A DNA stretch of 64,000 nt from Patescibacteria group bacterium (lineage in GTDB: Bacteria; Patescibacteriota; Minisyncoccia; Phycocordibacterales; UBA1550): the NCBI GenBank assembly GCA_038062675.1, contig JBBTWP010000004.1, positions 6,751 through 70,750 on the forward strand, read 5' to 3'. The position numbers and the translations under genes were made by a program. Under the pieces are notes generated by a model that was not told the DNA's origin, made no database searches, and saw nothing but the letters and a program-made list of their open reading frames with translations. Within the stretch, counting starts at the first letter, position 1; each line of letters starts with the position of its first letter. This document shows, piece after piece, positions 3,671 to 47,412 of the stretch.

Positions 3671-3695
3671 TCAGAATAATCTTTTTGAGATTTAA

Positions 3696-3729: not shown

Positions 3730-3758
3730 ATGCAAGGCAGAAATTGCACTTTTCGATT

Positions 3759-3836
3759 CTGCGGAATCGTGTCGCGCAAGTCCGTTGGGCGCGACCGGCC
3801 TGCGGAATCGTGTCGCGCAAGTCCGTTGGGCGCGAC
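3759..3836 (-). repeat. Two tandem copies (41-nt period) of a 37-nt double-hairpin unit 'U', minus orientation
   Basis: CTGCGGAATCGTGTCGCGCAAGTCCGTTGGGCGCGAC occurs at 3759-3795 and again, identical, at 3800-3836. The reverse complement is GTCGCGCCCAACGGACTTGCGCGACACGATTCCGCAG. The flank at 3837-3853 reads (reverse complement) AAGGTACGGATTTTTT, the same 5' junction as in elements E1-E3. Confidence 0.85.
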
Positions 3837-3877
3837 TAAAAAATCCGTACCTTTGAAACGACACCTCAACCGAAGAA

Positions 3878-3907
3878 TTGCATAATTTAAAGTAACTATA
3901 GTATAAT
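3878..3907 (+). promoter_or_regulatory. Candidate promoter of the KH-protein gene (TTGCAT - 18 nt - TATAAT)
   Basis: TTGCAT at 3878-3883, TATAAT at 3902-3907, about 60 nt upstream of the ATG at 3970. Confidence 0.4.
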
Positions 3908-3969
3908 AAATATATTGTAAGAATAGTTGTCGAGAATATCACGGGCGATAAGATTTAGAATATACCAAT

Positions 3970-4281
3970 ATGACCCAAGAACCAGATGTAGTATTTCTTG
4001 AATACGTAGTAAAAGCACTTGTGGATCATCCCAGCGACGTGAGAGTTGGTCGTACTGTTGATGAAATGGGTGTACTTATTACACTCGATGTGAATCCGGG
4101 CGACATGGGTAAGATTATTGGTCGCACCGGCAACACCGCAAAGGCAATCCGCACGCTTCTTCGTGTGGTAGGAATGAAAAATAACGCTCGCGTGAATTTG
4201 AAAATCCATGAGCCCGAAGGTGGGAAGCCTGCATCGCCAACCAAGAGTGTTGACGAGGTGATCGATGGTTTGAAGGTATAG
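3970..4281 (+). CDS. KH-domain RNA-binding protein (YlqC/UPF0109-like)
   Basis: VVKALVDHPSDVRV ... GDMGKIIGRTGNTAKAIRTLLRVVG carries the KH GxxG loop. It occupies the conserved position between rpsP and trmD. Confidence 0.8.
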   Translation: MTQEPDVVFLEYVVKALVDHPSDVRVGRTVDEMGVLITLDVNPGDMGKIIGRTGNTAKAIRTLLRVVGMKNNARVNLKIHEPEGGKPASPTKSVDEVIDGLKV

Positions 4282-8553: not shown

Positions 8554-8573
8554 GCTTAACGATACTAATCATT

Positions 8574-15567: not shown

Positions 15568-15825
15568 TCATTTTTTTGGATCTTCCTCTTCTTCCATATG
15601 GACTTCTGGTTGAAGTAAGCCGATTTTTGCTAAATAACAAAGAGTGCATCCAACCGAATACAGTACAAGGTAAATAAACACCCACAGCCCGACTGTTGAC
15701 ACCAGAATCCCTTGCCGTAGCACGGCACCATTGTTCATCCAGAGTTCATGCATCGTCAGTGTTCCTAGTGTTGCCAGTACAAAAGCAATGACTCCATTTG
15801 GGTATTTCTTAGGTTTCACGATCAT
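15568..15825 (-). CDS. Small membrane protein (85 aa, 2 predicted TM segments, acidic C-terminus)
   Basis: GAGGAGG Shine-Dalgarno 8 nt upstream of the ATG, its own consensus promoter and terminator, two hydrophobic stretches. No recognisable family. Confidence 0.55.
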   Translation of the reverse strand: MIVKPKKYPNGVIAFVLATLGTLTMHELWMNNGAVLRQGILVSTVGLWVFIYLVLYSVGCTLCYLAKIGLLQPEVHMEEEEDPKK

Positions 15826-18590: not shown

Positions 18591-18956
18591 TTACCCTTCT
18601 TTTCCTACGACTTCATCCAACATTTTGCTCGCGTGGGGTACAATCGATTTTGCGATTAAGGTAACTATCGCAAAAACCCCAAGAGCAAACAAGAAGAATA
18701 CTGCTATCAACAAGACTCCAATGTTGGTCATTGCCTCGTTCATTATAGTGTTCGCGCTGACCGCTATTGTTGTACCTATTGCAGTTACCATCAGGAGTCT
18801 GAGGGCAAAGGCGATTCCGATGAGTCCACCAATGACGATGAGTCCCCGAATGAGATATTTTTTCATTGTTTCGGGTGACTTTTTCCCTTGAATTATCATA
18901 ACGATGAAAAGTACAAGGATTGCTACAAATGCAGGTAATACCAGAAATTTGTACAT
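18591..18956 (-). CDS. Small membrane protein (121 aa, 3-4 predicted TM segments)
   Basis: Start moved to MYKFLVLPAF (ATG at 18956, AAGGGGA upstream), because the track start at 19010 lies upstream of the consensus promoter's -10 box. Highly hydrophobic. Confidence 0.55.
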   Translation of the reverse strand: MYKFLVLPAFVAILVLFIVMIIQGKKSPETMKKYLIRGLIVIGGLIGIAFALRLLMVTAIGTTIAVSANTIMNEAMTNIGVLLIAVFFLFALGVFAIVTLIAKSIVPHASKMLDEVVGKEG

Positions 18957-33623: not shown

Positions 33624-35333
33624 ATGCATATTGGACAAGAAAAGCTAAAAGAAATATTGCTTGAATCCGGACTCGTGAGCGATGAGGATTTTGAATATGC
33701 TACTGCAGAGGCTCGGCGCAGCGGACAGTCGCTTTCTAATGTCTTGGTTGGAGAAGGCAAAATTTCTGAAGATTATTTTACCGAACTCCTTGCTCCCTAT
33801 TATGGTGTTCAGGTTGTGAATCTCAAAAAAGAAACTATAGACCATGAGATTTTGGAGCTTATTCCTGAAATATACGCGAAGTCAAAGAATATTGTATTGT
33901 TTTTTTATGATAAAGAGAAAGGTATTGCAAAACTTGCCATGCTCGACCCCTTTGACTACGATACTATTGAGTATGTGCGGGCGAAGCTTGATGCGTGGGT
34001 CGAACCTTATCTCTCGACAGTCGCAAGTGTTCGTTATGGGCTCAAGCAATACAGCACAAAAATCGGTGTTGGCTTTGAACAAATCATTTCTGAAAATGTT
34101 GAACAGTCGCTTTCTGTTGCTGAAGAAAAAGATCTTTCAAAAACAGCTGCGTCGGTGCCTATTGTTACCATCCTTGATAATGTTATCGAGCATGCAGTTA
34201 CTTTAAATGCATCCGATATTCATTTTGAGCCCCTTGAGCATGAACTTTTGGTGCGTTTTCGTGTCGATGGCATCATGCAGGAGGTGGTGAGTCTCCCGAA
34301 AGCAATTGCTCCTGTTTTGGTCGCGCGCGTAAAAATCCTCGGAAGTCTTCAGATTGACGAACACCGCACCCCTCAGGATGGACGTTTTCGTTTTGATATG
34401 GACGATGGATCAAATATTGATTTACGCGTAAATATCATGCCGATTTTCCACGGGGAGAAAGTGGAAATGCGTCTCTTGAAGAGCTCTGCGCGACCACTGA
34501 CGCTCAAAGACCTTGGTTTTTCGGATGCAAATACCGCAGTCCTTGTAAATGAAGTCAAAAAACCCCACGGTATGATTTTAGTGACGGGGCCAACAGGACA
34601 TGGAAAAACTACAACACTGTATGCGGTGTTGCATATTCTCAATAAACCATCCGTGAACATTACAACCATTGAGGATCCTATTGAGTATGAGTTTCCGCGC
34701 GTAAATCAAACACAAGTAAACCAGAAAGCGGGGATTACGTTTGCAAATGGACTTCGCGCGCTTTTGCGTCAAAATCCCGACATCATTATGGTGGGTGAAA
34801 TCCGTGATAATGAGACGGTTGAAATTGCAATTCATGCCGCGCTTACGGGGCACCTTGTGCTGTCATCACTTCACACCAATGATGCCCCCTCTGCTATCCC
34901 ACGCCTTTTGGATATGGGTGCGCCGGCGTTCCTGTTGTCTTCAACTATCAACATGGTTATCGCTCAGCGTCTTGTGCGACGTATTTGTGCGTCGTGTACC
35001 GAGTCATATCCTGTAAGCCCAGAAATGGCGCGCCTTCTCAAGGCGCAAATCGAGCTGGCGGGGACCACAAATAGTAATGTTCCGGCGAGCTTGTTTCGTG
35101 GTAAGGGGTGCAAGGTATGCGGGAATTCCGGATATCAGGGGCAGATTGGTATTTTCGAGCTTTTGCGGGTTACTGAATCAATTCGTGCATTGATTTTGGA
35201 CGAAGCATCCATTCCGGAAGTGCGAAAGAAAGCAATTGAAGAGGGGATGATCACGATGTTTGAAGACGGGCTCGACAAGGTTGAGCGGGGAGTTACGACT
35301 GTGGAGGAGGTGCTCAGGGTAGTAAAAGAATAG
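33624..35333 (+). CDS. pilB: Type IV pilus assembly (extension) ATPase, PilB/GspE family
   Basis: N-terminal MshEN-like domain, Walker A GPTGHGKTTT, Asp box, Walker B DIIMVGEIRD, His box, tetracysteine motif (CASC ... CKVCGNSG). Confidence 0.92.
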   Translation: MHIGQEKLKEILLESGLVSDEDFEYATAEARRSGQSLSNVLVGEGKISEDYFTELLAPYYGVQVVNLKKETIDHEILELIPEIYAKSKNIVLFFYDKEKGIAKLAMLDPFDYDTIEYVRAKLDAWVEPYLSTVASVRYGLKQYSTKIGVGFEQIISENVEQSLSVAEEKDLSKTAASVPIVTILDNVIEHAVTLNASDIHFEPLEHELLVRFRVDGIMQEVVSLPKAIAPVLVARVKILGSLQIDEHRTPQDGRFRFDMDDGSNIDLRVNIMPIFHGEKVEMRLLKSSARPLTLKDLGFSDANTAVLVNEVKKPHGMILVTGPTGHGKTTTLYAVLHILNKPSVNITTIEDPIEYEFPRVNQTQVNQKAGITFANGLRALLRQNPDIIMVGEIRDNETVEIAIHAALTGHLVLSSLHTNDAPSAIPRLLDMGAPAFLLSSTINMVIAQRLVRRICASCTESYPVSPEMARLLKAQIELAGTTNSNVPASLFRGKGCKVCGNSGYQGQIGIFELLRVTESIRALILDEASIPEVRKKAIEEGMITMFEDGLDKVERGVTTVEEVLRVVKE

Positions 35334-35340
35334 GACGCTC

Positions 35341-35435
35341 GCTAAGTTCTTTTTAGGGTACGACTTTTTTGAAGCTTAAAAAAGTCTGAAGTTCTCGCGC
35401 CGTCGCGCTCAAAACCCCCTAAAAAGCAACTTAGC
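35341..35435 (+). repeat. Structured intergenic element E3
   Basis: Outer stem GCTAAGTTCTTTTTAGGG / CCCTAAAAAGCAACTTAGC (1 bulge). Core GGGTACGACTTTTTTgaagcttAAAAAAGTCTGAAGTTCTCGCGCCGTCGCGCTC. Begins 8 nt after the pilB stop. Confidence 0.8.
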
Positions 35436-35546
35436 TCGCTTTAAGGTTAAATGCCGTGTAGGGCACCAAGAAAAAGAAGAGCTCGCTTTACAGTGTCAAT
35501 CTGATGTATAATAAATGTAGTATTCAAATATTGAATTCGCAAATTT

Positions 35547-36770
35547 ATGGCAATATTTACTTATGAAGCATATGATGGTTCCGGCGCTGTTCTTCGGGGG
35601 GAGTACGAGGGCTCTTCTCAAGACGAGGTGTCGCAGTATCTTTTCAAGAGAAGTCTTACGCCCATTTCTATCACCATGCTTTCTGGTAAGCACGGTGGCA
35701 TGCAGAAGTTTCTATCTTCTTCCCCGTTTGAGAAACTTGATGCTGTTGATGTAATGTTCTTGGTACGAAACCTCGCCACGACCGTTAAGGCTGGGCTTTC
35801 ATTGATGGAGGCACTCGATATTCTTATTGCCGATGCAGAGAAAAACATTTTAAAGAAAGTGCTCAGGGAGGTGCAGGCCATGGTCAAAAATGGGCAGCAG
35901 CTTTCTGCAGGGTTTGAAGCGTATGCTAGTTCATTCCCTCCTGTTTTTATAGGAATGCTGAAAGCCGGAGAAGGCTCTGGTCAACTCGACAAAACACTTG
36001 CGGAGCTCGGTCGTTATTTGGGTAAAGAATATGCTCTACGGAGCAAAATAAAATCTGCACTGATGTATCCGGTTATTCTACTTGTTGCATCTACGGGAGT
36101 GGTGACGCTTCTTCTTATGTTTGTGTTGCCGCGGCTTACCAAGGCGTTTTTAGCGAGTGGCGTTGAGCTCCCCCTTCTTACTAAATTCTTTCTTGCTTTA
36201 TCCAATGCACTTACGTGGAGTTATGCGCTCGATGGTGTAGTGTTTGTGGTGGCGTTGTGGTTCTTTTTGTATTTTCGTACAACACAACTTGGGAAAAGAT
36301 TTTTCTTTTTTACTATGTCGCATGCACCCGTGGCAAGGGATTTGGTAAAAAAGGTCGCGCTCGTACGTTTCTCTCGCACGCTCTCAAATCTTATTGGTAG
36401 TGGACTTTCGGTTGTGGAAGCACTCGACCTATCGTCGCAATCGATTGGGAATCGGACATATACACTTGCGCTCAATCAGGTAATTATGGAAGTCAAGACC
36501 GGTAGCCCTATTTCCGGCGCACTTGAAAAATTTCCAAAACTTTTCCCGCGCATGCTCGTGAGTTTGGTGGTGGTGGGGGAACGTACGGGAACACTTGGAC
36601 AGATTCTTTCCACTTTTGCCGACTTTTATGAAGAGGAAGTTGACGGCAAGCTTAAAGACCTGACCGCTGCTCTGGAGCCGATACTCTTGCTCCTTATGGG
36701 AGTTTTGGTGGGGTCGATTGCCGTTTCTATTATTCTCCCTATCTATCAACTCGTGGGTAATTTTGTCTAA
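35547..36770 (+). CDS. pilC: Type IV pilus platform protein, PilC/GspF family
   Basis: Two GspF-type repeats and three TM segments. Typical length (407 aa) and position after pilB. Confidence 0.9.
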   Translation: MAIFTYEAYDGSGAVLRGEYEGSSQDEVSQYLFKRSLTPISITMLSGKHGGMQKFLSSSPFEKLDAVDVMFLVRNLATTVKAGLSLMEALDILIADAEKNILKKVLREVQAMVKNGQQLSAGFEAYASSFPPVFIGMLKAGEGSGQLDKTLAELGRYLGKEYALRSKIKSALMYPVILLVASTGVVTLLLMFVLPRLTKAFLASGVELPLLTKFFLALSNALTWSYALDGVVFVVALWFFLYFRTTQLGKRFFFFTMSHAPVARDLVKKVALVRFSRTLSNLIGSGLSVVEALDLSSQSIGNRTYTLALNQVIMEVKTGSPISGALEKFPKLFPRMLVSLVVVGERTGTLGQILSTFADFYEEEVDGKLKDLTAALEPILLLLMGVLVGSIAVSIILPIYQLVGNFV

Positions 36771-36777
36771 ACTTAAT

Positions 36778-37245
36778 ATGCACATACATACAACATCATC
36801 AGGATTTTCAATGTTTGAACTTTTGATTGTCTTGAGTATTGTTGCTGTTTTGGGAGGCGGCGGAGTTGGATTTTATCAAAATTTTTCAAAAGATGTTGAG
36901 CTCAAGACTACGATGCGAGTGATAAATGCCGACTTGCGCACTGCACGAGCAAAGTCTATGGCGCGACAAGACGACCTAAAGTGGGGGGTGCATTTTGTGA
37001 ATGATGGCGCAAATCCACATTATTACGAACTTTTCTCAACTCCTACCGATTATGCGAATGCAAGTATGTCCGTGAGCGCAACCACCACTCTTTCTAAAGG
37101 TCTTACATTTTCTGATCCGAGCTCGGGAACAAAAGACATTATTTTTTACAAAGTCGCCGGCACTACGACAGCGTCCACCGTGGGTGTGACCTCAAGCGCC
37201 GGCACACAGACGCTCACTATTTCGGCGTTGGGGACAATTTATTGA
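36778..37245 (+). CDS. Minor pilin / pseudopilin (prepilin-type N-terminus)
   Basis: MHIHTTSSG|FSMFELLIVLSIVAVLGG with G-1, F+1, E+5. Start at 36778; the track's extension overlaps pilC. Confidence 0.75.
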   Translation: MHIHTTSSGFSMFELLIVLSIVAVLGGGGVGFYQNFSKDVELKTTMRVINADLRTARAKSMARQDDLKWGVHFVNDGANPHYYELFSTPTDYANASMSVSATTTLSKGLTFSDPSSGTKDIIFYKVAGTTTASTVGVTSSAGTQTLTISALGTIY

Positions 37246-37246
37246 T

Positions 37247-37768
37247 ATGTATAAAAAAGTTTCCAATTACGCCTTTATTGATAGCCAAAATCTCAATCTT
37301 GCAATTCAGGATCAGGGATGGAAGCTTGACTTTACCCGTTTTCGAGTATACCTCAAAGAAAAATATGGTGTGACAAAAGCCTTTCTGTTTATAGGGCACA
37401 TCGAAGGCAATAATCATTTGTATATTTCTCTACAGTCAGCTGGGTTTCTTTGTGTTTTTAAACCGACACTCGAGTACAAGGATGGTACAACCAAAGGCAA
37501 CTGCGATGCGGAATTGGTTCTTCATGCGATGATAGAGTATCCTAACTACGACAAAGCGATAATCGTTACCGGAGATGGGGATTTTTATTGTTTAGCCCAG
37601 CACTTGCTTGAAAAAGATAAATTGCAGGCAATTCTTATTCCCAATAAGTTGAAGTTCTCAGGACTTTTAAAGTTTAAGATATTTCGCCCTTATTTGCGAT
37701 TAATGAACGATTTAAAAGAGCTATTAAGGTATAAAAAGAAAAGGCCCTATGAGGACAAAACCTCATAG
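37247..37768 (+). CDS. NYN-domain (LabA/YacP-like, PIN-fold) predicted ribonuclease, paralog 1
   Basis: YAFIDSQNLNL ... KGNCDAELVL ... YDKAIIVTGDGDFYCL: the N-terminal Asp, central Asp and GDGDF acidic constellation of NYN domains. No signal peptide or TM segment. The ATG lies 2 nt after the pseudopilin stop. Confidence 0.8.
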   Translation: MYKKVSNYAFIDSQNLNLAIQDQGWKLDFTRFRVYLKEKYGVTKAFLFIGHIEGNNHLYISLQSAGFLCVFKPTLEYKDGTTKGNCDAELVLHAMIEYPNYDKAIIVTGDGDFYCLAQHLLEKDKLQAILIPNKLKFSGLLKFKIFRPYLRLMNDLKELLRYKKKRPYEDKTS

Positions 37769-37863
37769 GGGGGACTCTTCCGTTGGTGATAGACATAGTA
37801 TACACCTAACAAAAAATGTGTCAACGGGGTATAATGAAAAGAGGATATTTTGAAAAAACCATA

Positions 37864-38550
37864 ATGTTTAATATGCAACATCAAAAATTTAACACGAAAC
37901 ATCTTCTCCGCTCACGTGGCTCACTCCTGCTCGAACTCCTTCTTTCGATTTCTGTGCTCGCAATCATTCTTTCTTTGAGTGCTCAGACGATGCTTGTGAG
38001 TTTGCAGAGTGAAAAAGTTTCGGGCGAGCGGGATGTGGCTGTTGCGCTTGCCAATGAGACACTGGAGGCAGTGCGTGCGGTTGCGGACGAAAAGTGGGTG
38101 AATATTTATTCGCTTACCGGCAAGGGGTCAACTCATTATAAAACTGTGCAGTCTGGGAATGCATGGACATTGGCAACAGGGGACGAAACAATTGCGCTTA
38201 ACAACGCCTCATATACTCGCTATGTGGTAATTGAGAATGTGAATCGGTGTCTCGATGTCGAAGCGGGTGGGGGGCGTAACCTTGCCAGCACTACCGTCGG
38301 TTGCACTCCCTCTACCAACTACCTCGATGACCCTTCCACCCAAAAAGCGACCGTGACGGTGTCGTGGACAGGAGGCAACCCTATCGTCATTAGTGAGTAT
38401 TTTTTCAGGTGGCGAAACAAAGTGTGCAATCAGACTGGATGGACGGGAAATGGAGGTTCGGGGAACAGTGTGGTTTCCTGCACTGATACAACCTATGATA
38501 TTGCCGACTCTGCAATCTCTACTTCAACGGGGACACTTAGGCTTGAATAG
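37864..38550 (+). CDS. Pseudopilin-like protein (prepilin-type N-terminus)
   Basis: ...HLLRSRG|SLLLELLLSISVLAIIL with G-1 and E+5. Start uncertain (37864 or 37873; the track gives 37816). Confidence 0.65.
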   Translation: MFNMQHQKFNTKHLLRSRGSLLLELLLSISVLAIILSLSAQTMLVSLQSEKVSGERDVAVALANETLEAVRAVADEKWVNIYSLTGKGSTHYKTVQSGNAWTLATGDETIALNNASYTRYVVIENVNRCLDVEAGGGRNLASTTVGCTPSTNYLDDPSTQKATVTVSWTGGNPIVISEYFFRWRNKVCNQTGWTGNGGSGNSVVSCTDTTYDIADSAISTSTGTLRLE

Positions 38551-38632
38551 GCTTTGTTTTAGCGAAAGACAACTCGTGGCATTAAAGAGGGGAGATTTAT
38601 TATAGCGAACTACGGAGCGATATAGTATAATT

Positions 38633-41600
38633 ATGTTAATGAATATAAAAAGGCAAATGATTTTGAAAAAAATTTTTGGATACGTCAAAAAATTTTCTAA
38701 ATTTAGTGTCGTTTTTTTGTTAATTGTAACTTTTGGGTTTGCGGATGTTGCAACAGTGGTTTTTGATGGGCTTGGTGCGCCAAAGTTGGCGCAGTGGACA
38801 GCAATCAAGAAAGCAGAAGCAGTGGCGCAGGGAGATGGAGAGATTATATACGGCGATAGTAATGCTAGTCTTGTAAGGAGAAGAGATTGGACAGGAACTT
38901 TCAGCGTGGAGTATGACACCCTTGCTGCTGGAACAGTAATTCGCCATGTTGTCATTAAAGCTTCACCGGTTAGGAATGAAATGATTGCCGGTATACAAAC
39001 CACTGCAGGCACGCTTTACATACAACGCTTTAATGGCACAAGTTGGTCCAATGAGTGGAATGTGACGGTTGGTGATGGAAATCTCCCTCGTTTTGACATC
39101 AGCTTCGAGGGCACTTCTGGAGATATGATGGTGGTGTATACAGGCAACACAGCCACTGACGGACAGGAACTGGTGTATAGAATTTGGAATGGCTCTACTT
39201 GGACTGTTGCGGCCAATTTGGGCTCAACGAGAACGACTGGCATTGTTGACGGTATAGCTATGGAGCGTCGCGGAGGCACTGATGAAATTGCGCTTGTGTA
39301 CGGAGACAGAAACTTCGACCTTTCGGCAAATTTTTGGGATGGTGCAACAAATGCATGGAAGGGGGAGCCGTCGGCAGCATTGGAAACAAGCTTGGCAAAA
39401 GTGGGAACCGCGACGACTCTAACTAACTTTTCTTTTGACCTTGAATTTGAATCCACATCCGGCGAGCTTTTGATTGTGTGGGGTGCTGATGCAGTGTTGG
39501 ACGGCAAGTATGTCACTCGTGGTGCTGGGCCGGCAGGCGCGTGGGGTTCTGTTACCACCAATACGGCTTTTCTTGAAGAGCCGACTGATGTGGAGCTTTC
39601 TGCCGACCCAAACTCAAATTACATTGCGTATGCGAATAGCTCGGATAACGGCGCAGACTCCGATGCCATAGTCTGGACGGGCACTGCGTGGGGGACGGCG
39701 TTTCAAGTTGACGCTTCAAACGACACGGTGGGTGCCGGAACAAGTAACAATGCGGTAAACTGGGTGACGAGTGGTGCCCAGACGCGTGCTGTGCTCACCT
39801 ACGACGATGCCAATGCAGCGGGTGTTGACTGGGCAGTATATAACAAAAATACCAATGCATGGGCTCTCCAAACCGACTGTACTACCGCTTGCTCGTCGCA
39901 ACCACTGAGTGGTGACGATAAGGTTCATCGTTTGCGACGCAATCCGTTTAATCAAGCTGAACTTCTTTTTTTGGGAGTAGATAACACTTCCGATTTATGG
40001 GTGAAAAAATTGGTCTTCGACGGAACTAATTTCACATGGTCAAATGCCGATGGCGGAGTAGCTCTTGAAACTGTGATATCGAGCGTTACCGGTTTTGCGG
40101 CAGATTTTGCATACAATAGGTACATTCCTCCTACGGTTACCACCACCCTTGCGACCGGCTCCGACCCTGCCGCCGCTACTATTGCCCCCGAAGCTGTAAC
40201 GACCGATGTAAATCAGTTTACTCTGCAGACAAGCAGTGGAACGGAAACAGTAACGTCGGTTACAGTGAATCTTTCAACCGGCAGCGGGGTGGATTCGCTT
40301 TATATTACTGATAATACCAATACGGTTTTGGGTTCAATAATCGCGCCGCTGTCGGGGGGCTCTAATGTGGTTGCCGTTTCGGGGATGTCAGCAGGTACAT
40401 CCGCCACAACATTCAAGGTTCGTGTTACTCCCCTGCCTCACAGTTTAATGCCAGCAGTGACGGGTGCAGCATACGCCATCACCGCACCCGTCACTGCATG
40501 GGCGGGGAATGCCACGACACACGCGGGGAGTGATACGAATACCAATGCACTTACAATTGACAATGCATCCCCTTCGGGAGCTACAAGCGCAAGTGGTACA
40601 GCAGGTGACGCAAAGGTAACACTCAACTGGACGACATCGGCGTCCACCGATTTTAGTCGCTCGGTGATGCTCCGGTGGACAGCATCAACGCCGAGTGCAG
40701 CGGTGCCCGAAGAGGGGACGGATTATGCGAATGGGAATACTGTTGGTAGTGGTTCAAAAATTGACTACAATACAGGAGCCAGTCCCATAGGTGTCGCCTT
40801 CGACTCCTCCACCAACTCTGTTTGGGTGGTGAATAGTGGTGGCAATACTGTCACCAAGCTCACCGCTGCCACTGGCGCTTTGGTGGGAACATATACAGTG
40901 GGAAATGCTCCTCGAGATGTCGCCTTCGACTCCTCCACCAACTCTGTTTGGGTGACGAATACTGGTGGTGGTTCCGGCAATACTGTCACCAAGCTCACCG
41001 CCGCCACCGGCGCCTTGGTGGGAACATATACAGTGGGAACTGGTCCTTTTGGTGTCGCGTTCGACTCCTCCACCAACTCTGTTTGGGTGGCGAATAATGG
41101 TAGTGGTTCCGGCAATACTGTCACCAAGCTCACCGCCGCCACCGGCGCCTTGGTGGGAACATATACAGTGGGAACTGGTCCTTTTGGTGTCGCGTTCGAC
41201 TCCTCCACCAACTCTGTTTGGGTGGCGAATAATGGTAGTGGTTCCGGCAATACTGTCACCAAGCTCACCGCCGCCACCGGCGCCTTGGTGGGAACATATA
41301 CAGTGGGAACTGGTCCTTTTGGTGTCGCGTTCGACTCCTCCACCAACTCTGTTTGGGTGGCGAATAATGGTAGTGGTTCCGGCAATACTGTCACCAAGCT
41401 CACCGCCGCCACCGGCGCCTTGGTGGGAACATATACGGTGGGAACTGGTCCTCGAGATATCGCCTTCGACTCCTCCACCAACTCTGTTTGGGTGGTAAAT
41501 AATGGTGGAAATACTGTCACTAAGCTCACCGCCGCCACCGGCGCTTTGGTGGGAACATATACGGTGGGAACCGGTCCCATAGATGTCGCCTTCGACTCCA

Positions 41601-43132
41601 CCACCAACTCTGTTTGGGTGGTGAATAATGGTGACGATACCGTCACCAAGCTCACCGCCGCCACCGGCGCTTTGGTGGGAACATATGCAGTGGGGGTCAG
41701 TCCCATTAGTGTTGCTTTCGACTCCTCCACCAACTCTGTTTGGGTGGTGAATAATGTTGGCGAAACCGTCAGCAAAGTGGATGCAGTGGGCGCCACGGTT
41801 GTCTGTGTCCGCACTGATGCTGCATCGACCGCCATTACCGACATCAACGGTGCCGGTGGCACCAGCTGTCTCACTACCGCCCTTACGAACGGCACCGCCT
41901 ACAGTTACAAAGTTTTCCAAAAAGACGCAAATGGCAACTATGACGCCGGTGTCGTGCCGACGGGTTCGCCGTTTACACCAGCTGCCATCACAACCACGCT
42001 TGCCACTGGTTCCGACCCTGCCGCGGCAACAATCGCCCCCGGAGCCGTCGCAACTGATGTTGATTTATTTACTTTGCAAACAAGCAGTGGAACGGAAACA
42101 GTAACTTCGGTGACGGTGAACCTTTCGACAAATAGTGGTATCGGTTTGCTCGCCATTACCGACAATGCAAACACTGTTTTGGGGTCGACTGCATCGCCGG
42201 TTACGGGTTCTAACGTTATTACGGTCTCAGGTATGTCAGCAGGTACCACGCTCACCACGTTTAAAGTCCGCGCCACACCTCTCAGTCATGCGCTGATGCC
42301 CGCACCTGCAGGCGGTGCGTACGCCATCACTGCGCCAGTGACAAGCTGGGCGGGAGCAAATACGCACGCAGGGAGTGATACAAACTCCAATGCGCTAACG
42401 ATTGACAACGGGTCGCCTGCTGGCACAACAGGCGCTGGCGCGGTAGCTGGGAACGCACAGGTCACGGTGAGCTGGACGAATCCTGCTGATGCTGATTTTC
42501 AAAAGGTAATTATTTATTGTAAGACCGCAAGCATCACTGAAACGCCAACAGAAGGATCTGATCCAACGGTGGACGTCGCCGCCTGCGACGCAACAGCACG
42601 TGTCAAGTATAATGGTTCAATAAGCCCGCAGATTATCACCGGCCTCACTAACGGTACGTTGTATTATTTTAGAATTTATGCGCGTGACACCAACGGTAAC
42701 TTTACCGCTATTGCATCTACACAGCAGGTTTCTGCTACGCCCGCGGCTGGAGGCGGACTCCCCGTTTCAGGGACACTCACCTCTGGGGTTTTTGACACAG
42801 GAACTGCTGATGGGGCGACGTTTAATTCTATTTTATGGAATGGAACCACTATCGGGACAGGAGCAGTACGCTTCCAGTTTTCGGCATCGAATAGTAGTAC
42901 AGGTCCATGGGACTATAACGGAGCAGGTTCAGGGACATGCGGGGCATTGGACTGGTTTAACCCCGGAGCTCTTGATACCGCTGTGGAGCTAAAGGGTTCT
43001 GGATGCGCAGCGCTTTGGAACAACAAACGATACTATCGTTACAAGGTACAGATTTGTTCCGCCGCAAATTGTACTGATGTTGGTGCTACTAGTCCTATTA
43101 TAAATAAAATTGTTGTCAGTTGGTCACCGTAA
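38633..43132 (+). CDS. Giant (1499 aa) membrane-anchored/secreted surface protein: N-terminal Trp-repeat propeller-like region, module A1, 8 YVTN-type beta-propeller repeats, module A2, C-terminal Ig/Fn3-like region. Candidate pilus-associated adhesin.
   Basis: N-terminal hydrophobic anchor (FSVVFLLIVTFGF). Seven W-containing repeats spaced 50-65 aa apart. Eight repeats of NTVTKLTAATGALVGTYTVGtGPxgVAFDSSTNSVWVaNnG match the 40-residue YVTN propeller repeat pattern. Encoded inside the minor-pilin operon. The exact start (38633 vs 38657) is uncertain. Confidence 0.85.
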   Translation: MLMNIKRQMILKKIFGYVKKFSKFSVVFLLIVTFGFADVATVVFDGLGAPKLAQWTAIKKAEAVAQGDGEIIYGDSNASLVRRRDWTGTFSVEYDTLAAGTVIRHVVIKASPVRNEMIAGIQTTAGTLYIQRFNGTSWSNEWNVTVGDGNLPRFDISFEGTSGDMMVVYTGNTATDGQELVYRIWNGSTWTVAANLGSTRTTGIVDGIAMERRGGTDEIALVYGDRNFDLSANFWDGATNAWKGEPSAALETSLAKVGTATTLTNFSFDLEFESTSGELLIVWGADAVLDGKYVTRGAGPAGAWGSVTTNTAFLEEPTDVELSADPNSNYIAYANSSDNGADSDAIVWTGTAWGTAFQVDASNDTVGAGTSNNAVNWVTSGAQTRAVLTYDDANAAGVDWAVYNKNTNAWALQTDCTTACSSQPLSGDDKVHRLRRNPFNQAELLFLGVDNTSDLWVKKLVFDGTNFTWSNADGGVALETVISSVTGFAADFAYNRYIPPTVTTTLATGSDPAAATIAPEAVTTDVNQFTLQTSSGTETVTSVTVNLSTGSGVDSLYITDNTNTVLGSIIAPLSGGSNVVAVSGMSAGTSATTFKVRVTPLPHSLMPAVTGAAYAITAPVTAWAGNATTHAGSDTNTNALTIDNASPSGATSASGTAGDAKVTLNWTTSASTDFSRSVMLRWTASTPSAAVPEEGTDYANGNTVGSGSKIDYNTGASPIGVAFDSSTNSVWVVNSGGNTVTKLTAATGALVGTYTVGNAPRDVAFDSSTNSVWVTNTGGGSGNTVTKLTAATGALVGTYTVGTGPFGVAFDSSTNSVWVANNGSGSGNTVTKLTAATGALVGTYTVGTGPFGVAFDSSTNSVWVANNGSGSGNTVTKLTAATGALVGTYTVGTGPFGVAFDSSTNSVWVANNGSGSGNTVTKLTAATGALVGTYTVGTGPRDIAFDSSTNSVWVVNNGGNTVTKLTAATGALVGTYTVGTGPIDVAFDSTTNSVWVVNNGDDTVTKLTAATGALVGTYAVGVSPISVAFDSSTNSVWVVNNVGETVSKVDAVGATVVCVRTDAASTAITDINGAGGTSCLTTALTNGTAYSYKVFQKDANGNYDAGVVPTGSPFTPAAITTTLATGSDPAAATIAPGAVATDVDLFTLQTSSGTETVTSVTVNLSTNSGIGLLAITDNANTVLGSTASPVTGSNVITVSGMSAGTTLTTFKVRATPLSHALMPAPAGGAYAITAPVTSWAGANTHAGSDTNSNALTIDNGSPAGTTGAGAVAGNAQVTVSWTNPADADFQKVIIYCKTASITETPTEGSDPTVDVAACDATARVKYNGSISPQIITGLTNGTLYYFRIYARDTNGNFTAIASTQQVSATPAAGGGLPVSGTLTSGVFDTGTADGATFNSILWNGTTIGTGAVRFQFSASNSSTGPWDYNGAGSGTCGALDWFNPGALDTAVELKGSGCAALWNNKRYYRYKVQICSAANCTDVGATSPIINKIVVSWSP
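40775..41785 (+). repeat. Tandem coding repeats (126-135 bp) encoding the YVTN blades; 40970-41420 is a perfect 135-bp x 3.3 array
   Basis: GGTTCCGGCAATACTGTCACC... recurs at 40970, 41105, 41240 and 41375 (exact 135-bp spacing). I saw no substitutions until about 41421. Confidence 0.9.
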
Positions 43133-43167
43133 CAGTTTTAGATATGATAAGCTATAAAAACTAGGCG

Positions 43168-43671
43168 ATGAAAAAAATACTCAATAATTATGCATATATA
43201 GATAGTCAAAACCTGAATCTTGGTATTCAGAAACTTGAATGGAAATTAGATTATCGGAAATTTAGGATATATCTTGCTGAAAAATACAGCGTTAAGAAGG
43301 CATATATGTTTATCGGTTTTGTTGCATTAAATCAATCGCTGTATGACAATCTCCAAGAAGCGGGATTTATTTTGAGATTCAAACCGACAGTTCCGGATGC
43401 TGACGGTAAAATTAAAGGCAACATAGATGCAGACATGGTTTTGCTTGCAACGCTTGAATTAAATGCTTATGACAAAGCGGTTATTGTTTCCAGTGATGGC
43501 GATTTTTATTCGCTCGTGCAGTATTTGCACGAGAATGGTAAATTAAGAGTTGTATTGAGCCCAGACATTAAAAATTGTTCAACGTTGCTTAAGCAGACAG
43601 CAAGAGAAAAGATATGGTTTATGAATGAATTGAGAAATAAACTTGAGTATAAAAAGAAAAGCACCGCTTAA
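43168..43671 (+). CDS. NYN-domain (LabA/YacP-like, PIN-fold) predicted ribonuclease, paralog 2
   Basis: YAYIDSQNLNL ... KGNIDADMVL ... YDKAVIVSSDGDFYSL. Colinear with paralog 1, with roughly half of the residues identical by eye. Visibly AT-rich. Confidence 0.8.
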   Translation: MKKILNNYAYIDSQNLNLGIQKLEWKLDYRKFRIYLAEKYSVKKAYMFIGFVALNQSLYDNLQEAGFILRFKPTVPDADGKIKGNIDADMVLLATLELNAYDKAVIVSSDGDFYSLVQYLHENGKLRVVLSPDIKNCSTLLKQTAREKIWFMNELRNKLEYKKKSTA

Positions 43672-43762
43672 GGATGAAACCTTAAACAGTACTTTCCCTA
43701 GAAATACATTTTAATTATATCAAATGGCTAAATTATGTCAAGCATCAAACAAGCACCGTAAT

Positions 43763-44287
43763 ATGAACATATTTTCTTACAAAAAAATACATACCGCACG
43801 TGGAGTCACGCTCCTTGAGCTTCTTATTTATGTGGCGGTGTTCTCGGGGATTGCGGTTGTGGTTGCTGATACCTTTCTCTCGATAGCAAAAGCACGCGGG
43901 CAGTCGGAGGCGCGCGCAGAGGTGAATTCCGCGATACGGTTTGCGACGGAGCTTGTTCGACAAGACTTAAAGGCGGCGACAGCGCTCGCCACACCCGCGT
44001 TGGGGACACCATCCGCGACTTTGGTTGCGACTGTAGCTGGGGCGACCGTCACCTATGACGTAGTTTCGGGACAGCTTCGTAGAAATGCTGTGGCGGTAAC
44101 CGGAAGTTTGATTTTTGTTGATACTCCTTCGTTTACACGGCTCGAGAACTATAACTCGGTGGTGGGGGTGACAGGGTTTGGTGCGACCACTACGGCAGTT
44201 TCGGTCTTGATGACCTTTCGATATAATGCTTCAAGCACCGACTGGACATACGCGGATACACTTCGCACGACCGTGACTTTGCGGTAG
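43763..44287 (+). CDS. Minor pilin / pseudopilin (prepilin-type N-terminus)
   Basis: MNIFSYKKIHTARG|VTLLELLIYVAVFSGIAVVV with G-1 and E+5. Start placed at 43763. Confidence 0.7.
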   Translation: MNIFSYKKIHTARGVTLLELLIYVAVFSGIAVVVADTFLSIAKARGQSEARAEVNSAIRFATELVRQDLKAATALATPALGTPSATLVATVAGATVTYDVVSGQLRRNAVAVTGSLIFVDTPSFTRLENYNSVVGVTGFGATTTAVSVLMTFRYNASSTDWTYADTLRTTVTLR

Positions 44288-44290
44288 ACT

Positions 44291-44773
44291 ATGGTTATGA
44301 TGAGATTTAATATAAAAAAAAGAAAATCGCAGGGCGGGGCAACACTTCCCACTGTTTTGGTCTTGACGATTTTAACGCTCACGGTTGCAGTGGGAATCAC
44401 CACTATTTCATTCACCGAATCTTTTATTTCAGAAAGTGGGGTGCAGTCATCCACCGCGCTCTTTTATGCCGAGGCAGGGACGCGGGATGCATTGACGAAA
44501 ATTGCACGCAACAAGGGGTATACCTGCGCTTCTGCCGATTATTGTTACAGTATTGAACTTGTTTCCGGTGGGTGTACAGGGTCTGTATTAGGATGCGCAC
44601 GGGTTTCGGTAAGTGCCGGAGCGGGGACTACTGCTGCGCCCAAAGTCGTTACCTCAAAGGGGATTGTAAAAACAAGCACACGAACACTTAGTGTAGATGT
44701 AATTCTCGATAGTGGGGCAGGGACAAATATTGGTCAGATTACTTCCGCCACAACGACGGAGTTGACCAACTAG
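44291..44773 (+). CDS. PilX-like minor pilus protein (hydrophobic N-terminus without E+5)
   Basis: KRKSQGGATLPTVLVLTILTLTVAVGITT resembles PilX_N-type N-termini. Last gene of the minor-pilin operon. Four Cys in the globular part. Confidence 0.5.
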   Translation: MVMMRFNIKKRKSQGGATLPTVLVLTILTLTVAVGITTISFTESFISESGVQSSTALFYAEAGTRDALTKIARNKGYTCASADYCYSIELVSGGCTGSVLGCARVSVSAGAGTTAAPKVVTSKGIVKTSTRTLSVDVILDSGAGTNIGQITSATTTELTN

Positions 44774-44781
44774 CCCGATGT

Positions 44782-44840
44782 GTAATCGAATGGCAAGGAC
44801 GGTCCTCGCCATTCGATTACCGAGGACGGTCCTCGGTAAT
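44782..44840. repeat. Nested palindromes between convergent operons (19-bp-arm hairpin + CGAGGACGGTCCTCG)
   Basis: GTAATCGAATGGCaAGGAC g GTCCTcGCCATTCGATTAC (44782-44820) is followed by the perfect palindrome CGAGGACGGTCCTCG (44821-44835) and GTAAT. Probably acts as a bidirectional terminator. Confidence 0.6.
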
Positions 44841-44865
44841 AGGCGAGAGATGCCTTATGGTACGG

Positions 44866-47412
44866 CTAGTTTTTTTGGGGTGAGTTGGCTGCTTCGATGC
44901 GATAATAGAGCAATTTTGCTATTTCTGTGGTGACAAAATAGGTGGCGACAATGCCCAGCACTAACGCAAGAGACTGCGGGGAAGGGGCAACAAAACCAAA
45001 TACAGATTGACCGAATGAGGTAAAAGGAATGATGATGGTTGCAGCAAACGCGACGACTGAGAGGGTGATGAGGGGTTTTGACGGTGCGCGCGCCTTGAGG
45101 AAAAATACACGAGAGCGTATTGAGTAGAGGAAAAGAATTTCAGTGAGGATGCTGACCATGAACCAATGAGTTTGAAGCATTTGTGCACTGATGTGATAGA
45201 ACGATGCGAATGTGATGAAGTCAAAGACCGTTGATACAATGCCGAGAACGGTTCCAAACGCAAGAATTTTCTTGATGTTGTATTCTTGCGGTTTTTGAAT
45301 GTCACTGTCTTCAACGGTATCGGTGGCGATTGCAATAGCGGGGAAGTCGGATAGGAGATTTACCAGCAGAATTTGAAGGGGAAGCATGGGGAGAAATGGA
45401 ATAAAGAGCGAAGAGATTGCCACCGCGTAAAAATTGCCGAAATTCGATGAAAGGGAACTGCGAATATATTTGATAGTGTTGGCGAATGTTACGCGGCCTT
45501 CGCGGATGCCTTCTATGATCACGAGGAGATTTTTTTTGAGAAGGACGATATCAGCAGCTTCTCGTGCAATGTCGGATGCAGACTGCACTGCAATGGCAAC
45601 GTTGGCGATTTTGAGCGCTGGAGCATCGTTAATTCCTTCACCCAAAAATCCGACATGGTATTTTTTCTGTAATAGTTCAATAATTTTATATTTGTCCTCC
45701 GGTGAAACGCGCGCAAAAGTACTCAATCGTTCGAGGGCTTCACTGCGCGCTTCATCATGAAGAGCAAAGAAATCGCGTGCAGTCAAAACATCTTGCGGAG
45801 TCTGTGCAAGACCAACGGCGTATGCGACCTGCCCTGCAACTTCAGGACTGTCTCCGGTAAGAATTTTGATCTTCACTCCCAATTTCACGGCTTCCTTGAT
45901 GGCTTCGCGTGCGCTTTCTTTTATGGGGTCAATGAAAGAAATAGAACCAATGAAGGTTAGAGATGTTTCGTCACTTACCGCGTCGTATTCATTGGAAGCG
46001 AGGGCTTTTGAAGCGACAGCAAGGGTTCGTCTGCCTGCAGCGCCTTCTTGTGCAGTCCATGCGAGAACGCTTGCGCGCTCTTCTGGTGTCATGTTTGACG
46101 CGTTTACGATTGCCTCTGGTGCTCCGCGTACCATGAGGGTGGTTTCGCCACTCTGTTTCAAGAGAACGCTGTTTTGCTTGCGTACGGGGTCAAAGGGGAT
46201 GTCACGCAATCGTTCGTATGATTTAATTTGATTTTGGTCGTCGGAAGAAAGTGCCTGCCAGAGCGCTTCATCGAATGGGTCAATGCCTTGGTTGCGATCC
46301 TTCATCAAGAGATATGAGCTCGCGAGATTGCCTGCGGTGAGTATTTGTCGGGAGCTTTGTTTTGACTCCGGACTATGGGTGAGATGTACGGTGAGCTTGT
46401 TTTCGGTCAGCGTGCCCGTCTTGTCGGTACAGAGAACATCAATTCCTCCAATATCTTCAATAGAAGAAAGACGCTTTACGATAACATGTTTTTTTGCTAA
46501 ACGTCGCGCACCGCGAGAGAGCGAAAACGTCATAACGACAGGGAGAGCTTCAGGAACCACTGATACTGCGAGTGCGATTGAAAAAATGGCAAGAGAGGCA
46601 ATGTTTGCGTCCCATCCTTTGAGTGCGATGTTGGTCGCGAAAATGAAAATGAGCGTTCCGACGACAATATAAAGAATAAATTTACTAAACCGTGCGAGCT
46701 CACTTTCGAATTTGCTTGCGTGGCTTGTTGTGCCGGTTAGGCGTGCGATGTTGCCAATGATGGTCTGGGATCCTGTGGCAAATACAATACCCACTGCACT
46801 TCCAGAAAGGACTGTTGTTCCCGAGAAAGCAATATTATTTGCAGTGTGAAGCTCCGAGGAGGGTTTTTCCATGGGCTTACTGCTCTTCATTACTGAGACG
46901 GATTCTCCTGTGAGCGGCTCCTCGTTGATGAGGAGGTTTATGTCCTCAATGATGCGCATGTCGGCGGCAATACTGTCGCCAGCTTCGGCGATGACAATAT
47001 CTCCGGGAACGAGCTCTTTCGTCGTGATGGTATACACAGAACCATCACGACGAACTTTGGTGCGCGCCGTGATGTAATGCCTGAGGAGTTCTACTGTTTT
47101 TTCGGAACGATATTCTTGGTAAAAGCCCAGAGTAGCGTTGATGAAGAGGAATAATACGATTGCCCATCCCTCAATCATTTGACCCAACATGAATGAAAGT
47201 CCTGCCGCTGCAAAAAGCAGGTAGATGAAAGAAGATTTGAATTGTCGGAGGAAAATTTTCCATGGGCGAACCGCGCTTTTTTCAATACGGTTCAATCCGT
47301 GTATTTTCCTAAGCTCTTCGACTTGTGTAATCGAGAGCCCTTGTGCTGGATCCACGGAAAATATTTTTGCTGTGGCGTCAGTGTCACGTGTTGTGTACTC
47401 GGTAAATCCCAT
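44866..47412 (-). CDS. Cation-transporting P-type ATPase (P2/P3-like, Mg2+/Ca2+-type architecture)
   Basis: Cation_ATPase_N-like start (GLSITQVEELRKIHGLNRIE), TGES, VPEALP in TM4, DKTGTLT, GDGINDAPAL, 10-TM layout. Confidence 0.9.
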   Translation of the reverse strand: MGFTEYTTRDTDATAKIFSVDPAQGLSITQVEELRKIHGLNRIEKSAVRPWKIFLRQFKSSFIYLLFAAAGLSFMLGQMIEGWAIVLFLFINATLGFYQEYRSEKTVELLRHYITARTKVRRDGSVYTITTKELVPGDIVIAEAGDSIAADMRIIEDINLLINEEPLTGESVSVMKSSKPMEKPSSELHTANNIAFSGTTVLSGSAVGIVFATGSQTIIGNIARLTGTTSHASKFESELARFSKFILYIVVGTLIFIFATNIALKGWDANIASLAIFSIALAVSVVPEALPVVMTFSLSRGARRLAKKHVIVKRLSSIEDIGGIDVLCTDKTGTLTENKLTVHLTHSPESKQSSRQILTAGNLASSYLLMKDRNQGIDPFDEALWQALSSDDQNQIKSYERLRDIPFDPVRKQNSVLLKQSGETTLMVRGAPEAIVNASNMTPEERASVLAWTAQEGAAGRRTLAVASKALASNEYDAVSDETSLTFIGSISFIDPIKESAREAIKEAVKLGVKIKILTGDSPEVAGQVAYAVGLAQTPQDVLTARDFFALHDEARSEALERLSTFARVSPEDKYKIIELLQKKYHVGFLGEGINDAPALKIANVAIAVQSASDIAREAADIVLLKKNLLVIIEGIREGRVTFANTIKYIRSSLSSNFGNFYAVAISSLFIPFLPMLPLQILLVNLLSDFPAIAIATDTVEDSDIQKPQEYNIKKILAFGTVLGIVSTVFDFITFASFYHISAQMLQTHWFMVSILTEILFLYSIRSRVFFLKARAPSKPLITLSVVAFAATIIIPFTSFGQSVFGFVAPSPQSLALVLGIVATYFVTTEIAKLLYYRIEAANSPQKN

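Follow-up and report, generated by a model that had tools for sequence, protein, structure and literature searches.

Two genes for LabA-type NYN nucleases, NYN1 and NYN2, lie inside a type IV pilus operon on a 64-kb stretch of Patescibacteria DNA (contig JBBTWP010000004.1; this whole stretch is hereafter called the window, and its coordinates are used throughout). A convergent antisense RNA gene of about 60 nt is predicted at the 3' end of each of them, a call that is strongly supported by sequence comparison, and each NYN gene with its RNA gene is a self-contained two-gene cassette, which the first-pass annotation of this DNA had overlooked. We favor, at a probability of roughly 0.55, the view that these are promoterless mobile nuclease cassettes carried in host operons, each of which would be restrained by its own antisense RNA much as happens in toxin-antitoxin (TA) systems of type I. 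The pairing of a LabA-type NYN protein with a ~60-nt antisense RNA appears to be a very abundant and previously undescribed module; we found no prior description of it in the literature on NYN or LabA proteins with antisense RNA, toxin-antitoxin systems or Patescibacteria.

A Predicted Antisense RNA Gene Faces the 3' End of Each NYN Gene

The first-pass annotation had reported two co-oriented NYN open reading frames (ORFs), and both are present on the plus strand where it placed them: NYN1 at 37247..37768 (173 amino acids [aa], subfamily B) and NYN2 at 43168..43671 (167 aa, subfamily A). Past NYN1, a minus-strand promoter at 37797..37824 agrees with the sigma-70 consensus in 11 of 12 positions, with a -35 element TTGACA (37824-37819), a 16-nt spacer and a -10 element TATACT (37802-37797). 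The RNA predicted from it (antisense RNA 1; 37733..37790, minus strand, about 57 nt, ends predicted, fold energy -22.9 kcal/mol) would consist of a single-stranded 5' segment, a hairpin and a U-run complementary to lysine codons, and the core stem of the hairpin (37770-37745, minus strand, CCCTATGAGG/CCTCATAGGG) straddles the NYN1 stop codon. The arrangement past NYN2 is of the same kind. Its minus-strand promoter (43714..43741) matches the consensus in 12 of 12 positions, with TTGACA (43741-43736), a 16-nt spacer carrying an extended TG, and TATAAT (43719-43714). The predicted antisense RNA 2 (43645..43707, minus strand, about 60 nt, ends predicted, -29.3 kcal/mol) comprises the 5' segment UGUAUUUCUAGGG, a 20-bp hairpin (43699-43654, minus strand) that includes the complement of the NYN2 stop codon, and a U-run. 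A covariance model of the element, R1, matches both sites, at 37727-37824 (60.5 bits, E 2.6e-8) and at 43645-43741 (90.1 bits, E 4.5e-14).

Within 36.5-44.9 kb of the window, the two best promoter matches are both on the minus strand directly 3' of the NYN genes, and so are the two strongest terminators, 43699-43654 (the strongest) and 37770-37745; the same scan returned no plus-strand terminator at either NYN end. Only five sites in the entire window reach at least 11/12 to the sigma-70 consensus, and both antisense promoters are among them. Of the others, perfect 12/12 promoters at 15899 and 19029, both on the minus strand, stand before two genes for small membrane proteins, at 15568-15825 and at about 18591-18950 on the minus strand, both of which have a clear Shine-Dalgarno sequence and ATG, and an 11/12 site at 5148 (plus strand) has no obvious gene start within 100 nt. 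Because two promoters of the 11/12-12/12 class precede such ordinary small genes, this class is really used in the organism.

The same layout recurs well beyond the window. In copies of both subfamilies, the NYN stop is followed by a hairpin and then by ...TAGAAATACA... TATTATAC ...(about 17 nt)... TGTCAA, and this 3' module from hairpin to TGTCAA is found in more divergent paralogues as well. Read on the minus strand, it becomes TTGAC[AT], a 16-18-nt spacer, TAnnnT, about 6 nt, the segment UGUAUUUCUAGGG, a hairpin of 19-20 bp and a U-run, the last being the complement of the C-terminal lysine codons of NYN. Promoter, 5' segment, hairpin and U-run were all found in 26 diverse copies. In the alignment of these 26 sequences the hairpin is 92% paired and 12 of its 19 pairs show compensatory changes; none of 500 shuffles reached the observed value, and slid registers gave 48%-63% pairing. 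Read as the antisense strand, the alignment holds 72 G·U pairs against 6 A·C mismatches, and folding energies average -26.1 kcal/mol for the minus strand and -17.3 kcal/mol for the plus strand; selection for the fold is therefore placed on the antisense strand. The position of the NYN stop codon within the hairpin varies, and in some copies the ORF reads through it, which argues that the hairpin is conserved as a nucleic acid and not as coding sequence.

At about 110 loci, model R1 detects the element 3' of virtually all NYN copies, without exception in antisense orientation, and the anatomy of the cassette is conserved in about 100 copies. The window itself holds no orphan antisense RNA gene, that is, no R1 match without an NYN gene, and Rfam 15 gave no match at E<=1 on either strand of 36500-44900. 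One related group lacks the antisense module entirely: a separate NYN clade seen in many Paceibacteria (L038-L051, where labels of this form denote the compared loci; for example, L044 6028-6474), 54%-57% identical to NYN2, which stands 6-13 nt upstream of mutM/fpg (MPELPEVES...). This clade may represent a stable chromosomal ancestor of the mobile cassettes.

The Cassette Is Delimited as a Unit of about 580 bp

Cassette 1 (37247..37828, ~580 bp) and cassette 2 (43168..43745, ~578 bp) each contain the NYN ORF and the antisense RNA gene with its promoter. The limits of the first were taken from recently diverged copies with unrelated flanks and those of the second from conservation within subfamily A, which spans the ATG to the -35 hexamer and no further. 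Several pairs of copies are 88%-94% identical in DNA while their flanks are unrelated on one or both sides (L120/L131, L104/L105, L118/L120, L086/L103, L081/L082); L103 and L104 have the right flank alone in common. Between such recently diverged copies similarity begins between -5 and +1 of the ATG, and in the cleanest pairs it stops 4-6 nt beyond the -35 hexamer (...AAAAAATATGTCAAACTT|). As the boundaries of similarity fall there, the mobile unit of ~580 bp coincides with the NYN ORF and the adjoining promoter and RNA gene, and neither a recombinase nor terminal repeats nor a target duplication is present. A conserved 5' end or terminal repeats were considered and dismissed, the information content upstream of the ATG being about zero, and this lack of conserved upstream DNA indicates that the NYN ORF is promoterless and embedded in a host operon.

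Similarity between L086 and L103 is a mosaic, which suggests recombination between cassette copies. Decay products are also seen: in L120 the NYN gene is internally deleted and fused in frame to its last 14 codons with the RNA gene intact, and L131 has an orphan RNA gene retaining about 8 NYN codons. By analogy, this is the pattern that would be expected of toxin/antitoxin pairs. At several loci two or three divergent NYN paralogues occur close together, as in the window, where tblastn found no third copy.

Other readings of the unit were set aside. The first-pass annotation had described the two NYN genes as bracketing a giant adhesin gene; a composite transposon of that form was dismissed, the ORFs being only 64% identical in DNA and there being no flanking direct or inverted repeats. 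The idea that a terminal ATGTCAA restores the start codon of the host gene was unsupported, because downstream ORF starts are spread over 20-140 nt and the share beginning at this ATGTCAA (about 5/31) equals chance expectation. An outward plus-strand promoter was seen in the window's own lineage only and is not conserved across cassettes. A tight link to Y1 transposases was likewise dismissed, their homologues occurring in 21 of the 157 sequences examined and not in the window.

Two further features were noted beside cassettes. A motif of ~30-45 nt (ATGCTTAACCAAAACGCAAAACTTAATCCGAAATTATTTTCCG and variants) is repeated next to NYN cassettes in several unrelated contigs (L073, L082, L116, L120 at 7640-7670, 8310-8350 and 8570-8600, and the downstream flanks of L103/L104) and, in the array of L120, stands between the cassettes; a short leader ORF (M-x-N-P-K-L-K-L-N-P-K-L...) is one possible identity, a small repeat element of another kind a second. 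In L001-L004 (Wildermuthbacteria, 3600-4000), a 79-aa ORF resembling a ribbon-helix-helix/antitoxin protein precedes an NYN2-type gene, and the 160-nt gap is filled by a long perfect inverted repeat (GCCCCGTAGTGAATTTTTGAC...GTCAAAAATCTACTACGGGGC); these may be an unrelated TA remnant or a terminator.

Both Proteins Are Intact LabA-Type NYN Domains

Profile searches and structure prediction confirm both ORFs as intact LabA-type NYN proteins (PF01936), predicted nucleases of the PIN fold, as the first-pass annotation had proposed. NYN1 scores 47.3 bits (E 3.9e-12) and NYN2 59.0 bits (E 9.9e-16) against Pfam NYN, for which the gathering score is 24.2 bits. The two proteins are 53% identical over 165 aa (BLASTP, E 1e-57), in agreement with the earlier by-eye estimate of roughly half. 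The acidic active-site positions noted earlier in IDSQN, DAE/DAD and GDGDF/SDGDF held up in a 42-sequence alignment, in which D12, D87, D110 and D112 never vary and either D or E occupies position 89; 43 alignment columns are invariant in subfamilies A and B together. An AlphaFold model of NYN2 (predicted local distance difference test score 89.7, predicted template modeling score 0.86) adopts a PIN-like alpha/beta fold of globular, cytoplasmic type. Its best match in the PDB is the LabA-type NYN structure 2qip (template modeling score 0.77-0.79, E 2e-9), which phmmer also matches (E 5e-7), and a second, more distant structural match is the PIN-like T5 flap endonuclease. As first described, neither protein sequence has a signal peptide, membrane segment or prepilin motif: there is no N_methyl match and no hydrophobic N terminus. 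They are single-domain proteins without OST-HTH/LOTUS or another partner domain. The group to which PF01936 and 2qip belong has been named "NYN.COG1432 (LabA-like)", with its function listed as unknown (Matelska et al., 2017; PMC5499597).

The Family Is Large, Old, and under Strong Purifying Selection

NYN2 has more than 4,284 homologs. The best 120 of these are ~167 aa long and 79%-87% identical, and their named sources are Wildermuthbacteria, Berkelbacteria, Paceibacterota, Parcubacteria and one contig labeled Woesearchaeota. The last (L019, DUGB01000020.1, 3.7 kb, labeled Candidatus Woesearchaeota) carries a complete NYN2-type cassette whose protein is 86% identical; given its size and content, it is probably a mis-binned Patescibacteria contig rather than a case of inter-domain transfer. 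NYN1 represents the second subfamily, with at least 7,990 homologs, and its top matches, 73%-91% identical, come from Minisyncoccia, Nomurabacteria, Yonathbacteria and Gracilibacteria. A database protein identical to that of the window is named Patescibacteria. At one locus (L043) the NYN match lies within a 534-aa ORF, which may reflect fusion to the downstream gene or a lost stop codon. Third-codon identity is just 0.46-0.57 between copies that are ~83% identical in protein, which indicates that the spread of the family was not recent.

The NYN genes are indeed AT-richer than their surroundings, as the first-pass annotation had judged by eye, with a GC content of 0.372 (NYN1) and 0.339 (NYN2) against 0.44-0.52 in flanking genes and 0.459 in the window. 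A recent horizontal arrival was considered on these grounds and dismissed, since syntenic orthologs are saturated at synonymous sites and GC is constant in three genomes: the NYN1 ortholog has a GC content of 0.364-0.372 in each of the window, L062 and L066. Low GC, kept at 0.36-0.37 despite saturated synonymous sites, is thus intrinsic to the NYN1 gene.

The position between the pseudopilin and the homolog of the minor pilin gene orf244 is occupied by an NYN1-type gene in five related pilus operons (L062, L066, L079, L146, L148). In L062 and L066, NYN is 89%-91% identical to NYN1, compared with 78% for PilB, 66% for PilC and 50%-62% for the pilins, and four-fold degenerate sites are saturated in each of these genes. 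This degree of protein identity at saturated sites points to a long residence of NYN1 under very strong purifying selection. In the closest relative, L150 (PilB protein 96% identical, operon DNA 84%-88% identical), the pseudopilin adjoins orf244 with no NYN gene between them, and the same operon is intact without NYN in L151 (Yonathbacteria), L153 and L155 (Nomurabacteria). Homology between the window and L150 extends to 37257, 11 nt into NYN1, and resumes at 37918; this comparison of filled and empty sites places the indel at 37258-37917, where L150 has 28 unmatched nt. The orf244 leader of the window resembles leaders at other empty sites. We suggest that the empty slot of L150 arose by secondary loss, the 28 unmatched nt being insufficient to settle between insertion and deletion. 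NYN identity does not track PilB identity (80.6% for PilB and 72.8% for NYN in L148), and this incongruence indicates repeated gain, loss or replacement at one slot. L062 and L066 lack any counterpart of NYN2, for which no empty site was found either: the distal operon is unconserved in L062/L066, and the L150 contig ends within the giant gene.

NYN Cassettes Occupy Many Unrelated Operons

The first-pass annotation had offered three possibilities for the NYN genes: processing of the minor-pilin/adhesin mRNA by a pilus-linked nuclease, handling of nucleic acid imported via the pilus, and selfish or toxin-like insertions exploiting the operon. A neighborhood survey of about 60 distinct homologous loci spoke against the recurrence of NYN next to pilin genes on which the first two would depend. 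Among 33 distinct NYN1-type loci with adequate flanks, prepilin ORFs occur within 5 kb in two, both from the window's own lineage, and are absent from the other 31; among about 26 NYN2-type copies outside the window they were found in one (L024). Only 2 of 64 immediate neighbors match N_methyl. The remainder include tkt, TIM/PGK, Wzm/Wzt, MreB, tRNA synthetases, NusA and others, and a cassette may split a functional pair, as in tkt-N/NYN/tkt-C (L118), TIM/NYN/PGK (L144), Wzm/NYN/Wzt (L076, L068) and GT1/NYN/GT1 (L135), or lie between NusA and H+-PPase (L129). NYN is co-oriented with both neighbors in 31/33 loci. The upstream gap has a median of 23 nt and is <=10 nt in 13/31, while the downstream gap of 50-140 nt corresponds to the RNA gene. 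Since they are found within so many unrelated operons, the cassettes look like hitch-hikers and not parts of the pilus, and pilus association does not characterize the NYN family. Of the three possibilities, selfish or toxin-like insertion is the sole one that fits the evidence.

NYN2-type cassettes were also seen directly after very large surface-protein genes in three to four independent loci (window 38633-43132, L005 2497-3993, L025 24-5876, L027 184-5871). The giant gene encodes fn3/beta-propeller repeats in the window and Laminin_G_3 in L005, while those of L025 and L027 both encode Peptidase_S74 together with Ig-like domains; NYN2-type cassettes may prefer variable surface-protein regions rather than pili.

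The Host Pilus Operon

The operon that carries both cassettes (33624..44820, plus strand) was assigned from the ORF list and from N_methyl and T2SSE/T2SSF matches. It begins with PilB (33624-35333, T2SSE match) and PilC (35547-36770, T2SSF match), followed by a pseudopilin (36718-37245, prepilin N_methyl match), whose stop lies 1 nt before NYN1. Downstream of NYN1 are the minor pilin orf244 (37816-38550, true start probably near 37861) and the repeat-rich ORF of the 1499-aa surface protein (38633-43132), the stop of which is separated from NYN2 by 35 nt. The operon continues with a second pseudopilin (43724-44287, prepilin N_methyl match, true start probably near 43763) and its last ORF, orf160 (44291-44773), all on the plus strand. 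Past the orf160 stop, a 19-nt inverted repeat of 95% complementarity (44782-44820) lies before a convergent P-type ATPase gene (stop 44866) and is probably a bidirectional terminator closing the operon.

The gene for the 1499-aa protein contains at least seven tandem repeats of 126-135 nt (42-45 aa) at 40706-41796, with mutual identity of up to 96%, flanked by an internal duplication of ~1.85 kb (40139-40634/41990-42479). The high identity of the repeats suggests recent expansion or continuing variation in repeat number. Related pilus operons carry further small accessory ORFs at positions where the window has none (L066 5750-6136, L151/L152 2395-2781, L005 5228-5596, L150 66-752, L155 5502-6835, L062 184-483), among them a 23S_rRNA_IVP (Avd-like four-helix) gene between PilB and PilC, Y1_Tnp genes, ~90-aa GIY-YIG genes and a MazEF pair. 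In the window's relatives, small selfish genes seem often to land at operon junctions.

A Model for the Cassette and Its Alternatives

In the model that we favor, the NYN ORF has been inserted, co-oriented, between two genes of a host operon, and its transcription would come from read-through of that operon. The near-consensus sigma-70 promoter on the opposite strand, aimed back at the NYN 3' end, would produce an abundant RNA of ~60 nt, which would base-pair to the operon transcript at its NYN 3' end or bind the nuclease directly and so keep nuclease output low. The sense version of the hairpin, weakened by A·C mismatches and missing a U-run, should not terminate the host operon, and host transcription would continue into the downstream genes, in keeping with an element adapted to an existence within operons. 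If supply of the antisense RNA failed, through loss of the cassette or transcription shut-off in infection, a Mg-dependent nuclease would build up and cleave RNA; this release would parallel what occurs in 3'-overlapping type I systems and in SymE. The cassette would then act within operons as a type I, possibly type III-like, toxin-antitoxin, addiction or abortive-defense module. The conserved loop and 5' segment hint that direct RNA-protein recognition of the type III kind is also allowed.

Several points weigh against this model. The RNA, its ends, its effect on NYN and the toxicity of NYN are predictions. NYN is unusually conserved for a toxin, at 89%-91% identity where PilB has 78% and synonymous sites are saturated, to which a beneficial enzyme is as good a fit as an addiction toxin, if not a better one. 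NYN, a soluble 167-173-aa enzyme without a promoter, contrasts with the small hydrophobic peptides that are the canonical type I toxins, which have their own. Pure antisense pairing would not require as much conservation as is seen in the loop and 5' segment of the RNA; the excess hints that a protein recognizes them or that some coding constraint persists in longer ORF variants. The G·T asymmetry of the hairpin would equally suit a hairpin of single-stranded DNA. Finally, the unit shows no recombinase, terminal repeats or target duplication by which its mobility might be explained.

If the high conservation is taken at face value, NYN might instead be a beneficial housekeeping RNase, for example in tRNA, rRNA or mRNA processing, with its dose tuned by the cis-antisense RNA; the cassette would move now and then, and its persistence would be explained by help to the cell and not by addiction. 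The selection seen at the NYN1 slot, with NYN far better conserved than PilB, PilC or the pilins, the 43 columns invariant across both subfamilies, and the related clade that sits stably upstream of mutM with no RNA module would all agree with such a role, as would earlier context analyses that tie bacterial NYN genes to tRNA/rRNA maturation (PMC5499597). We nevertheless think it rather unlikely, as presence and absence differ between operons whose PilB is 96% identical and the distribution is patchy across the clade; there are several divergent paralogs per locus, NYN copies that are truncated, RNA genes left as orphans, copies that diverged recently yet differ in their flanks, and unrelated host operons with no functional theme in placement. 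A second alternative is a selfish mobile element in which NYN is a homing or transposition nuclease, or in which the hairpin is a DNA signal recognized in trans (e.g., by Y1/HUH transposases), the promoter-like motif and U-run being secondary. Its sharp ends and lack of target duplication, its position wedged between conserved, functionally coupled genes in a patchy pattern like that of free-standing homing endonuclease genes, the incongruence of NYN and host-operon identity at one slot, the Y1_Tnp genes in several neighborhoods, and a G·T wobble asymmetry compatible with a strand-specific single-stranded DNA hairpin are all consistent with this. Site-specific homing, however, is hard to square with proteins 70%-90% identical at many different junctions, and an IS200/IS605-like element with a single hairpin and none at the 5' end; the window has no Y1_Tnp despite its two cassettes; promoter spacing, -10 TAnnnT and U-run are kept exactly as an RNA gene needs; and homing genes pass through a cycle of gain and decay, unlike a gene of long residence with saturated synonymous sites and strict purifying selection. 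We regard it as unlikely.

A bolder form of the selfish-element idea is that the ~580-bp unit is a new autonomous mobile element, its spread into intergenic operon junctions driven by NYN as an unrecognized homing or transposition nuclease, with the hairpin RNA or DNA as recognition, guide or regulatory partner. If true, it would explain how a unit with no recombinase, repeats or target duplication colonized thousands of Patescibacteria sites; we hold it to be quite unlikely. The pilus-linked reading, in which NYN1 and NYN2 process minor-pilin/adhesin mRNA or handle nucleic acid imported via the pilus, draws on the slot shared by five related pilus operons, on the NYN2-type copies that follow very large surface-protein genes (window, L005, L025, L027) and on the view that Patescibacteria import DNA by means of pili and ComEC (PMC12455944). 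It appears highly improbable, because prepilin ORFs lie near so few loci of either type (two of the 33, in the window's lineage, and one of about 26) and are so rare among immediate neighbors, the pilus operon is intact without NYN in L150, L151, L153 and L155, NYN2 is missing from the related operons L062 and L066, and the NYN proteins have neither signal peptide nor membrane segment.

Should the favored model of an RNA-restrained cassette be correct, it would remove an attractive but wrong link between NYN proteins and pili or DNA uptake in Patescibacteria, and would give the LabA/COG1432 group, for which no function is listed, a concrete and testable regulatory partner. Patescibacteria are often described as poor in toxin-antitoxin and defense systems, and the cassette would be a candidate addiction or defense module for them as well as a candidate structured RNA outside Rfam. 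Cassettes in essential operons (tkt, TIM/PGK, Wzm/Wzt, NusA) would constitute portable stretches of homology, which may shape operon expression and genome rearrangement in streamlined genomes, and they would offer a simple marker for tracing gene flow between uncultured lineages.

Comparison with Known Systems

Searches of system and virus collections gave little: PADLOC returned weak partial matches to a generic NYN model only, PHROGs nothing significant for the NYN proteins, and a scan of viral contigs no NYN relatives. The closest parallels are with toxin-antitoxin systems. Bacillus txpA/RatA and bsrG/SR4 are type I systems with 3'-overlapping convergent antisense RNAs, and RalR/RalA has a nuclease-type toxin. 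SymE/SymR is likewise a type I system whose toxin is of nuclease type (PMC1891008). The cassettes resemble type I systems in their cis-encoded, convergent small RNA (predicted here) with a strong promoter, overlap with the 3' end of the protein gene and a hairpin terminator, and in their multi-copy, patchy distribution with orphan RNA genes left after loss of the protein gene. They differ in that the protein is a soluble NYN enzyme of 167-173 aa and not a small (<60 aa) hydrophobic membrane peptide, in that its gene lacks a dedicated promoter and depends on the host operon, with gaps often <=10 nt, and in that NYN is far more conserved than typical toxins. Type III systems (ToxIN) pair an endoribonuclease with a tandem-repeat RNA antitoxin that is encoded upstream and processed by the toxin. 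Here too a predicted endoribonuclease is paired with a dedicated structured small RNA, and conservation of the loop and 5' segment beyond antisense need would suit protein-RNA recognition; there are, however, no tandem repeats near the NYN genes, the RNA is a single unit that lies downstream and antisense, and the nuclease has another fold. The cassette fits neither class in its canonical form.

Among mobile elements, T-even phages carry free-standing homing endonuclease genes, mobE between nrdA and nrdB being one, that are similarly small nuclease genes set between coupled conserved genes, co-transcribed with them and distributed in a patchy, host-incongruent way. To our knowledge, the NYN fold is no known homing family, and the cassettes depart from homing genes in having 70%-90% identical (some near-identical) proteins at many unrelated junctions, long-term purifying selection and an associated antisense RNA gene. 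IS200/IS605 and REP/RAYT elements also bear hairpins and lack terminal inverted repeats and target duplication, and Y1 transposases are common in such genomes. Unlike IS200/IS605, the cassette has a single hairpin near its 3' end instead of hairpins at both ends, a promoter and a U-run lie on either side of the hairpin as in an RNA gene, and NYN is the only ORF, with no Y1 transposase in the unit or the window. It is also unlike an integron gene cassette, as its 3' element is a promoter plus terminator hairpin with no GTTRRRY-type boxes by inspection, copies are mostly single and inside ordinary operons, and none of the annotated neighborhoods showed an integrase. By Pfam match, fold and acidic residue set, the proteins are like the LabA-like NYN nucleases (PF01936, COG1432), of which 2qip is VPA0982 of Vibrio parahaemolyticus. 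What sets them apart from that group is the extreme sequence conservation between Patescibacteria lineages and, as predicted from the sequence comparisons presented here, the coupling of each gene to a dedicated antisense RNA gene.

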